64,000 nucleotides of DNA from positions 53,134,001 to 53,198,000 of the forward strand of contig OZ024747.1 in assembly GCA_964016885.1 (NCBI GenBank). Direction: 5' to 3'. Below the pieces are notes generated by a model. It saw nothing but the letters and a program-made list of their open reading frames with translations. It was not told the origin of the DNA and searched no databases. This DNA comes from Eledone cirrhosa (taxonomy: Eukaryota). A program made the position numbers and the translations under genes. This document shows, piece by piece, positions 47,671 to 50,190 of this stretch; within the stretch, counting starts at the first letter, position 1; the number at the start of each line of letters is the position of its first letter.

Positions 47671-47676
<6 letters not shown>

Positions 47677-49077
47677 ATGATGGCTGCTTGTTGCAAATGG
47701 TGGTGCATATGAAAAAGTAAGTCCTTCATCAGTGACCCGCCAACCGTCCCAGGCATTTCATCGCTTTAAGGGCCATATGCCTCAGGTTGGTGCGAACAAC
47801 GGCTAAAAAAAGTCGTTGGGACACGTAAACAAAGGGGACGCCAGGGTAACAACAAAAAGGTTTAAGCAACGGAAAGTGAGAAGAAATAGACAAGTCCCAC
47901 ATCTCTATGAATATAAACTCGGTGAAATCGTGAACAAGAGACAAAAGACCATCAAACCCGGTTGAAATGTGAGCAAGGAAAGAATTTCGCACAAGTCTAA
48001 CGGGGGGGAAAAAGAGAGAAGAAGAAGAAGAAGAAGAAGAAGAAGAAGAAGAAGAAGAAGAAGAAGAAGAAGAAGAAGAAGAAGAAGAAGAAGAAGAAGA
48101 AGATAAAGGGGTCTGGTCTACGAATTCGGTAAACATAAGTTTTGTGAAGTCGCAGACGAAAGAGAGAGAGAGAAAAAAATTCCATACCAGCTTGGTCAAG
48201 ACCGCGCGAGAAAAGAATTACACACAGGTCAAACTTGAAGGAGGAGGAGGAAAGAGGAGGAGGAGAGGTAGTGACAGAGAATGAGTGAGTGAAAGTTGAG
48301 GAGGAGGCTAACAGAGAGAGAGAGACTGCTAGAAAGGGTAAAAGGTACAAAGAACGAGAAAGGTTAAAAGGTACAAAGAACGAAACAGGCGAGTGGCAGC
48401 AGAAGAAAAATTATGTGTAAATATGATAATAATGATGGCTGCTTGTTGCAAATGGTGGTGCATATGAAAAAGTAAGTCCTTCATCAGTGACCCTCCAACC
48501 GTCCCAGGCATTTCATCGCTTTAAGGGCCATATGCCTCCGGTTGGTGCGAACAACGGCTAAAAAAAGTCGTTGGGACACGTAAACAAAGGGGACGCCAGG
48601 GTAACAACAAAAAGGTTTAAGCAACGGAAAGTGAGAAGAAATAGACAAGTCCCAGATCTCTATGAATATAAACTCGGTGAAATCGTGAACAAGAGACAAA
48701 AGACCATCAAACCTGGTTGAAATGTGAGCAAGGAAAGAATTTCGCACAAGTCTAACGGGGGGGGGGGAGAAGAAGAAGAAGAAGAAGAGGAAGAGGAAGA
48801 AGAAGAAGAAGAAGAAGAAGAAGAAGAAGAAGAAGAAGAAGAAGAAGAAGAAGAAGAAGAAGCAGATAAAGGGGTCTGGTCTACGAATTCGGTAAACATA
48901 AGTTTTGTGAAGTCGCAGACGAAAGAGAGAGAGAGAAAAAAATTCCATACCTCTCTCTCTTTCGTCTGCGACTTCACAAAACTTATGTTTACCGAATTCG
49001 TAGACCAGACCCCTTTATCTTCTTCTTCTTCTTCTTCTTCTTCTTCTTCTTCTTCTTCTTCTTCTTCTTCTTCTTCT

Positions 49078-49124
<47 letters not shown>

Positions 49125-50190
49125 TTCTTCTCTCCCCCCCCCGTTAGACTTGTGCGAAATTCTTTCCTTGCTCACATTTCAACCAGGTTTGATGGTCTTT
49201 TGTCTCTTGTTCACGATTTCACCGAGTTTATATTCATAGAGATCTGGGACTTGTCTATTTCTTCTCACTTTCCGTTGCTTAAACCTTTTTGTTGTTACCC
49301 TGGCGTCCCCTTTGTTTACGTGTCCCAACGACTTTTTTTAGCCGTTGTTCGCACCAACCGGAGGCATATGGCCCTTAAAGCGATGAAATGCCTGGGACGG
49401 TTGGAGGGTCACTGATGAAGGACTTACTTTTTCATATGCACCACCATTTGCAACAAGCAGCCATCATTATTATCATATTTACACATAATTTTTCTTCTGC
49501 TGCCACTCGCCTGTTTCGTTCTTTGTACCTTTTAACCTTTCTCGTTCTTTGTACCTTTTACCCTTTCTAGCAGTCTCTCTCTCTCTGTTAGCCTCCTATC
49601 AAACTTTCACTCACTCATTCTCTGTCACTACCTCTCCTACTCCTCTTTCCTCCTCCTCCTTCAAGTTTGACCTGTGTGTAATTCTTTTCTCGCGCGGTCT
49701 TGACCAAGCTGGTATGGAATTTTTTTCTCTCTCTCTCTTTCGTCTGCGACTTCACAAAACTTATGTTTACCGAATTCGTAGACCAGACCCCTTTATCTTC
49801 TTCTTCTTCTTCTTCTTCTTCTTCTTCTTCTTCTTCTTCTTCTTCTTCTTCTTCTTCTTCTTCTTCTTCTTCTTCTTCTCTCTTTTTTCCCCCCCGTTAG
49901 ACTTGTGCGAAATTCTTTCCTTGCTCACATTTCAACCAGGTTTGATGGTCTTTTGTCTCTTGTTCACGATTTCACCGTGTTTATATTCATAGAGATCTGG
50001 GACTTGTCTATTTCTTCTCACTTTCCGTTGCTTAAACCTTTTTGTTGTTACCCTGGCGTCCCCTTTGTTTACGTGTCCCAACGACTTTTTTTAGCCGTTG
50101 TTCGCACCAACCTGAGGCATATGGCCCTTAAAGCGATGAAATGCCTGGGACGGTTGGAGGGTCACTGATGAAGGACTTACTTTTTCATAT
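47671..50190. mobile_element. Non-autonomous element B: ~755 bp tandem unit, ~1.7 copies per arm, arranged as a 2.5 kb palindrome between (TA)n tracts
   Basis: Unit starts at 47671 and 48426; centre loop ~48934-48950; right arm ends TTTTTCATAT then (TA)n; internal (GAA)n; non-coding. Confidence 0.85.
49354..49420 (+). ncRNA. Candidate permuted hammerhead-like motif (also 50107-50173 +, 47724-47790 -, 48479-48545 -)
   Basis: AGGCA-TA / TGGCCCT / TAAAGCGAT / GAAA-TGCCT / ... / AGGGTCA-CTGATGA; covaries with 1078-1146. Confidence 0.45.

Follow-up and report, generated by a model that had tools for sequence, protein, structure and literature searches.

How does a 2.5-kb palindrome without a gene come to stand between two (TA)n tracts in the genome of the octopod Eledone cirrhosa, and what moved it there? 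The palindrome, here called element B, occupies positions 47671 to 50190 of the 64,000-nt stretch that we analysed (GenBank assembly GCA_964016885.1, contig OZ024747.1, 53,134,001 to 53,198,000 of the forward strand), which is referred to below as the window, supplies all coordinates, and consists of microsatellite-rich animal DNA without any N. Our answer, to which we give a probability of roughly 0.78, is that B is real and was inserted recently, as a non-autonomous, retrozyme-like Penelope-like element (PLE), most likely dependent on the reverse transcriptase (RT) and endonuclease of a Naiad-type PLE. The anatomy of the insertion points to a PLE, and a hammerhead motif with rearranged blocks, found in every unit of B and resembling the 3' ends of octopus Naiads, points to the kind of helper.

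Anatomy of element B

A reading of the letters alone, made before this analysis (the sequence-only reading), had described B as a palindrome of a tandem unit of about 755 nt, and this is confirmed: the anchor of the unit stands at 47671 and again at 48426, 755 nt further on, and the predicted cleavage sites described below are spaced by 755 nt in the left arm and 753 nt in the right. Its further claims, that each arm holds about 1.7 near-identical units (1.70 left, 1.65 right), that the loop is about 17 nt long and that both flanks are (TA)n, hold as well (Table 1). The arms are 97.2% identical across 2501 columns by blastn and, outside simple repeats, differ at 9 of 1014 nt, four of the nine lying in a single cluster; the central junction falls inside a (GA)n tract, with 1 nt common to both arms. 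What had been missed is that the palindrome is not flush, the left end exceeding the right by 36 nt.

Read in the polarity of the ribozyme, B thus consists of 5'-truncated copies in a partial tandem, joined at the 5' end by another such copy in inverted orientation, and bears a tail of 36 nt; as to a target-site duplication, both flanks are simply (TA)n. [quoted passage not shown] The same paper gives a (TA)n insertion bias for Naiad and Neptune; a tail of 30–40 bp is likewise reported in PMC11167929, where it was mapped to two RT start sites, and a 31-bp tail with head-to-head inversions is known from Penelope insertions (PMC3846280). Since tail, partial tandem, inverted copy and (TA)n target all match these descriptions, the anatomy of B is ordinary, known PLE behaviour, and the palindrome itself is nothing new. 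A published calibration gives a divergence of 0.065 for 18 My (PMC13282606); counted as six events or as nine sites, the difference between the arms would make them roughly 0.8–1.2 My old, if they started identical.

B shows no coding signal, and here too the sequence-only reading is borne out. With the GAA tract set aside, the longest frame free of stops has 103 aa, and 496 of 1000 local shuffles contain one at least as long; seven frames compared with Pfam gave no match at the curated cut-off; and one frame had no homologue in one protein search and a single weak match in another (E 5.7e-7, 30% identity, best stretch 20 residues). Coding capacity was rejected on these grounds, as was a tRNA origin, there being no tRNA gene in the window. 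Without an open reading frame (ORF) for RT and GIY-YIG, B is non-autonomous.

A rearranged hammerhead motif in every unit

All four unit copies of B hold an intact hammerhead core on the T-rich strand, which had also escaped notice before. Hammerhead residues are conventionally numbered (A9, 10.1 and so on), and we write the blocks of the core as S for the cleavage site, G for GAAA and C for CUGAUGA; in B they run S–G–C, a non-circularly permuted order. From 5' to 3' the strands are Px, the P0 hairpin, the 5' strand of stem II, Pext, the S block, a linker of 3–4 nt, the G block, Pext', stem I', CUGAUGA and Px', where the helix names Px, P0 and Pext were coined in this analysis. Stem III has six Watson–Crick pairs and stem I six to eight, the cleavage triplet is AUA, and CUGAUGA stands 19 nt from the right end of B. 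An unconstrained nested fold already contains P0, Pext and stem III (probabilities 0.80–0.85 for Pext and 0.48–0.89 for stem III), and in the proposed structure the insertion of Px and P0 between A9 and 10.1 would turn the base of stem II into a four-way junction.

The motif is rare by chance. A descriptor for the S–G–C order, applied to both strands of the window (128 kb), finds five sites, four in B and one, at 1137, in an older partial tandem that we call element C; an order-free search through all six block orders returns the same five sites, every one S–G–C. Among dinucleotide shuffles of the B unit, 3 of 20,000 pass the loose descriptor and none of 20,000 reaches stems of six and seven pairs, while in the order-free search 1 of 10,000 shuffles reaches 5/5 pairs and 0 of 10,000 reaches 6/6.

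B and C can also be compared pair by pair. With the two aligned by MAFFT without structural guidance, 90.7% of 140 cells in five helices are paired and 12 of 28 pairs are changed on both sides (P0 was left out of the count, the alignment being off by one column there); controls with slid partners give 35–46% paired and at most three two-sided changes. Pext alone accounts for four two-sided changes among its seven pairs. Outside the motif there is a weak colinear likeness between B and C in pyrimidine-rich sequence (score 79; 1 of 500 local shuffles scored as high), which is suggestive only. A covariance model built from B and C recovered only the six known sites, with seven extra matches at E 1.2–4.2. 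Element C ends in (TA)n 103 nt past its predicted cut, near the 105 nt of B.

Conventional searches do not find the motif. A scan for type I hammerheads gives six sites in the window and none in B, and Rfam at gathering level has no match anywhere in the window; Rfam also misses the plain hammerhead of the coding PLE in the same window, so its silence on B weighs little. Readings of the motif as a type II hammerhead, or as a hepatitis delta virus (HDV)-like, twister or pistol ribozyme, were dropped by eye.

Among its closest published counterparts are the natural SGC and CSG hammerheads, which cleave in vitro; in these the S-to-G linker is about 3 nt long, and an additional helix ties together the outer sides of stems I and II (PMC10085705). 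With type SGC, B shares the block order, the conserved core, stems I and III, the linker of 3–4 nt and, in Pext, a helix in the role of joining stems I and II. It differs in that the 5' strand of stem II lies upstream, with Px and P0 intervening: directly after CUGAnGA there is one pair in B and two in C. B therefore resembles type SGC yet is not filed under it. The published SGC and CSG examples come from metatranscriptomes and metagenomes, CSG from two metagenome sequences, with no animal or transposon source in the sections and supplement of PMC10085705 that were covered.

Naiads, the coding element and other repeats of the window

Naiads are described as lacking normal hammerheads, and of the 54 Naiad families in the supplement of PMC8557442, 10 are marked HHR_core and 8 HHR_half_core. 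We compared passages of this supplement with B by eye throughout. It was the 3' ends of Naiad_Obim and Naiad_Ovul, which have the helix order of B and a similar P0 hairpin, that suggested the rearranged core in B. At least 16 distinct passages from Naiad 3' regions parse as permuted hammerheads, 10 in the split form of B and 6 as type CSG. The split form is found in octopus, coral and other Naiads, namely in Amil, Aacu, Anas, Obim and Ovul and in five passages with record names out of view (parts 8, 9, 12 twice and 19), with a Px of 3–8 pairs, a P0 hairpin of 5–9 pairs and a stem II of 4–6 pairs with G10.1–C11.1; in one of them (part 8) stem I has only two pairs and Px is out of view. Plain CSG hammerheads are seen in Naiad-1, -2 and -3_Nbra, in Hcon and in two passages with names out of view (parts 13 and 16). 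The count is a lower bound, covering places 1–58 of 62 for CTGATGA and 4–13 of 43, 25 and 23 for the other three cores; it also misses motifs broken across lines, and several core-bearing passages remain unparsed. Nematode Naiads end in textbook type CSG hammerheads.

Beyond this fold, which the supplement annotates merely as HHR_core or HHR_half_core, Naiads including Naiad_Obim and Naiad_Ovul share with B the (TA)n target, tandem and inverted insertions and a tail (PMC8557442). Unlike them, B lacks an ORF, and outside the 3' motif no likeness to them is detectable; three exact B motifs had no match in the supplement. Non-autonomous partners are reported in that paper for Chlamys elements, and none is mentioned for Naiads in the passages covered.

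The window holds a potential helper of its own, a coding PLE whose head-to-head palindrome B had been said to mirror. Its arms differ by just two short indels in 1670 columns and its best protein match, in Octopus vulgaris, is 64% identical. It has no blastn similarity to B, does not share its terminal sequence or ribozyme type, has no tail, and its right flank is not (TA)n. With no sequence in common here and a 3' motif like the ends of octopus Naiads, a Naiad is the likelier helper of B. The earlier description of B as a young non-autonomous parasite of the PLE machinery therefore stands in part: the partial tandem, head-to-head inversion, tail and (TA)n target agree with it, while the proposed tie to the coding PLE of the window does not hold up. 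A set of 44 Neptune-like proteins matches only this PLE and 4948–5169, which is a weak test for Naiads.

Several known systems combine some of these traits. Non-long terminal repeat (non-LTR) retrozymes (PMC7229834; bioRxiv 10.64898/2026.07.22.740005) are non-coding tandems with a hammerhead motif per unit, as in the 4 of 4 copies of B, and depend on PLEs, as we propose for B; they have type I hammerheads and units of 150–450 bp (PMC7229834), whereas B has a permuted motif, units of 753–755 nt, an inverted arrangement and a tail. Non-autonomous Chlamys elements such as MRC1 (PMC8557442) are, like B, non-coding PLE partners that form head-to-tail multimers, with a 3'-end likeness to the helper of their own; unlike B, they live in green algae, target (C)n or (CA)n and have no hammerhead reported in the passages covered. 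The head-to-head Penelope insertions of Adineta vaga share with B the inverted repeat at the 5' junction and the tail at one end, and this Penelope mobilises non-coding cargo in trans; they differ in being autonomous or ORF-derived, with short pLTRs and visible target duplications (PMC3846280).

The window holds further repeats. At the centre of the coding PLE an (AAC)n slippage tract stands on one arm, and the 3' end lies about 150 nt past the type I hammerhead; the idea that its palindrome included host flank was dropped, these 150 nt recurring in related elements at 1980–2260 and 12640–12870. Just after element C, a short palindrome at 1805–2260 (85%) has, besides a type I hammerhead at 2012 (+), the terminal motif of the coding PLE, of which it is likely a non-autonomous relative. 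PLE 3' ends with type I hammerhead-like motifs lie at 12640–12890 (-), 46470 (+) and 7559 (-), and an old PLE RT fragment at 4948–5169 (-). Nested palindromes between (TA)n tracts at 38058–38588 are related to 7648–7892 and 27959–28095 and form a further fold-back family; smaller inverted repeats occur at 57016–57229, 58318–58505, 51011–51101 and 42462–42516. A tandem array of a 124-bp unit (58796–61600, about 23 copies, 94–99% alike) has no Rfam or tRNA match, and a dispersed repeat of about 190 bp (85–94% alike) lies just left of B at 47364–47556 and in at least nine other places, in tandem at 32470–33040.

Table 1. Coordinates of element B, its hammerhead motifs and the related elements of the window.
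Feature	Position	Strand	Description
Element B	47671..50190	.	Partial tandem in a head-to-head palindrome, with the 3' ends of the RNA outward
B left arm	47671..48951	-	1281 nt, 1.70 units; probable sense strand - (T-rich, holds ribozyme core)
B right arm	48951..50190	+	1240 nt, 1.65 units; probable sense strand +
B loop	48934..48950	.	17 nt, unit sequence from left arm only
B tail	47671..47706	-	36-nt extension, left end only; 33–40 nt given TA microhomology at both ends
B left (TA)n target tract	47640..47673	.
B right (TA)n target tract	50187..50208	.
G-tract and (GAA)n, left outer unit	47996..48104	+
Other G-tract/(GAA)n tracts of B	near 48750–48865, 49019–49150, 49797–49900
Motif, right inner copy	49322..49423	+	Triplet AUA; predicted cut after 49368
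Right inner copy, helices	Px 49322–25/49420–23; P0 hairpin 49326–47; stem II 49349–52/49380–83		U.U at base of stem II
Right inner copy, helices	Pext 49354–60/49398–404; stem III 49362–67/49388–93; stem I 49369–75/49405–11
Right inner copy, core blocks	GAAA 49385–88; CUGAUGA 49412–18
Motif, right outer copy	50075..50176	+	Predicted cut after 50121; one Pext pair broken (50113)
Motif, left inner copy	48476..48577	-	Identical to right inner; predicted cut after 48531
Motif, left outer copy	47721..47822	-	Predicted cut after 47776; Pext pair broken (47784); stem I cut to 6 bp (47739)
Element C	1032..1746	+	Older; partial tandem with a period of about 550, its repeated part being 88.6% alike; ends in (TA)n
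C motif copies	1046–1150 and 1595–1701		Sequence unlike that of B; second copy with damaged GAAA
Coding PLE palindrome	24461..27847	.	5'-truncated RT end and C-terminal GIY-YIG, CX4CxxC linker; Neptune/Nematis-like by motif
Coding PLE minimal type I hammerheads	27645 (+), 24661 (-)

Template, rival explanations and meaning

As we picture the origin of B, a donor tandem of slightly different units would have been transcribed on its T-rich strand. The 3' motif of this RNA would fold as a pseudoknotted hammerhead that accommodates Px and P0 in a four-way junction, inserted between A9 and 10.1; it could cut the multimer into monomers of 753–755 nt, possibly circularised. The endonuclease of the helper would nick (TA)n, and reverse transcription would begin at one of two points, 69 or 105 nt 3' of the cut, whose distance from each other would account for the 36-nt tail. 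Once synthesis had halted in the (GA)n tract, either fold-back or the joining of two cDNAs would supply the inverted arm; the central offset of 17 nt suits a fold-back, and the tail suits two priming events.

The nature of the template can be narrowed. With two predicted cut sites lying within each arm, the template should have been either a circle or an uncut multimer. The sequence-only reading had proposed reverse transcription round a circular RNA of about 755 nt followed by fold-back, and a circle of that size is indeed plausible with a ribozyme in every unit: the motifs recur at a spacing of 753–755 nt, the arms stop at most 17 nt apart, animal retrozyme circles are documented (PMC7229834), and circles have been proposed as PLE templates in a circle-to-tandem model published as a hypothesis (PMC4209133). 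What weakens a monomer circle copied 1.7 times round is a set of mirror variants. Both outer units share a base at 47784/50113 that is absent from both inner units, and a run of A5–6 after the G-tract is present in both outer units and in neither inner one. A monomer circle would need two copying errors in one pass, or later conversion between the arms, whereas a donor-tandem transcript with two different units would explain the variants without special events; they thus favour a linear two-unit template. A Poseidon PLE studied in vitro, moreover, used uncut RNA, did not need the hammerhead and made its tail from two RT start sites (PMC11167929). We regard the monomer circle as rather unlikely.

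Whether the motif is catalytic at all deserves the same care. It could be a hammerhead-derived structure recognised by the protein of the helper, or the B copies could have decayed; the split C block and the weak stem II and Px of B would fit, and PLE hammerheads are often poor cleavers or protein-dependent (PMC11167929, PMC4209133). Yet all four B copies retain the complete set of core nucleotides, as do, by eye, the parsed Naiad passages from several phyla, and the six CSG passages fit a topology that cleaves (PMC10085705). A non-catalytic motif is accordingly doubtful, if the least improbable of the alternatives; the Naiad-type motif probably self-cleaves, and for the B copy we lean the same way with more reserve. 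Mobilisation by the Neptune-like PLE family of the window would draw on a coding element that is very young, uses (TA)n and forms the same head-to-head palindrome, and on the reported inactivity of cephalopod Naiads (PMC8557442). Against it stand the absence of shared sequence, the other ribozyme type, the missing tail and the likeness of B to octopus Naiad ends, and we consider it unlikely. Perfect-looking palindromes are a known artefact of long reads, and the window holds several palindromes, as a fold-back chimeric read or another assembly or library error might produce. In B, however, the inversion stops at the ends of the element, with unrelated flanks beyond; the arms have diverged at the 9 sites noted above and vary in the length of their repeats, and the tail that sets one end apart from the other is of the size expected. 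An artefact is therefore very improbable, and the ribozyme finding is in any case independent of the palindrome being real. More improbable still is a DNA transposon of the foldback or miniature inverted-repeat type, with modular inverted arms at TA: long inverted arms of tandem units and a TA-rich target would suit it, but the two ends do not match flush, differing by 36 nt, the palindrome is centred on a point of truncation within a unit, and the conserved feature is an RNA fold on one strand.

Several observations weigh against the reading that we prefer, namely a recent PLE insertion with a working hammerhead and a Naiad helper. No second copy of B exists within the window by blastn or by the B and C covariance model, though the distant relative C is present. 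The motif breaks the block rule of PMC10085705, by which the 5' strand of stem II follows CUGAUGA. That stem has only four pairs in B, on a U.U mismatch; a U.U at this place is also seen in Hydra PLE hammerheads of a published table, and an axolotl hammerhead with it was 22% cleaved in an hour (PMC7229834). Nested ensemble probabilities are 0.00 for Px and 0.11 for stem II, stems I and II crossing the nested helices and so not being scorable together with them, and the folding energy of the whole region is unremarkable (z -0.75 to 0.41 in four B windows). Searched by E-value, Rfam returns 37 matches on B, to hairpin miRNA and snoRNA models below their gathering scores, and no ribozyme. The covariation count rests on two independent families, from which the structure itself was derived, and the Naiad comparison on supplement passages without a computed alignment. 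Four of the six Naiad records with a fully covered 3' end (Omin, Esco, Adux and 1_Skow) have no parseable motif, two of these four being listed as incomplete. Finally, cephalopod Naiads are described as long inactive (PMC8557442), which sits badly with B arms that are 99% alike.

Novelty lies in the topology of the ribozyme and its connection with Naiads, not in the palindrome. Within a literature that was mainly open-access and covered in part, so that an earlier report is possible, we found no link between permuted hammerheads and Naiads or animal genomes. The widest claim suggested by these sequences is evenly poised: that Naiads and non-coding parasites across animal phyla may carry active permuted hammerheads, including a split-C topology with a four-way junction, and that B may be a young "Naiad retrozyme" giving a 755-nt circular RNA, which would imply a recently active octopod Naiad. 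If true, permuted hammerheads would occur in animal genomes in large numbers, and the "half-core" notes of the Naiad paper would be explained. If Naiad 3' ends are permuted hammerheads, current retrozyme screens, which use type I descriptors, would miss a whole class, and a topology known only from environmental RNA would acquire a host and a likely function. The phased outer and inner variants would provide a genome-scale handle on circular versus linear templates in PLE transposition.

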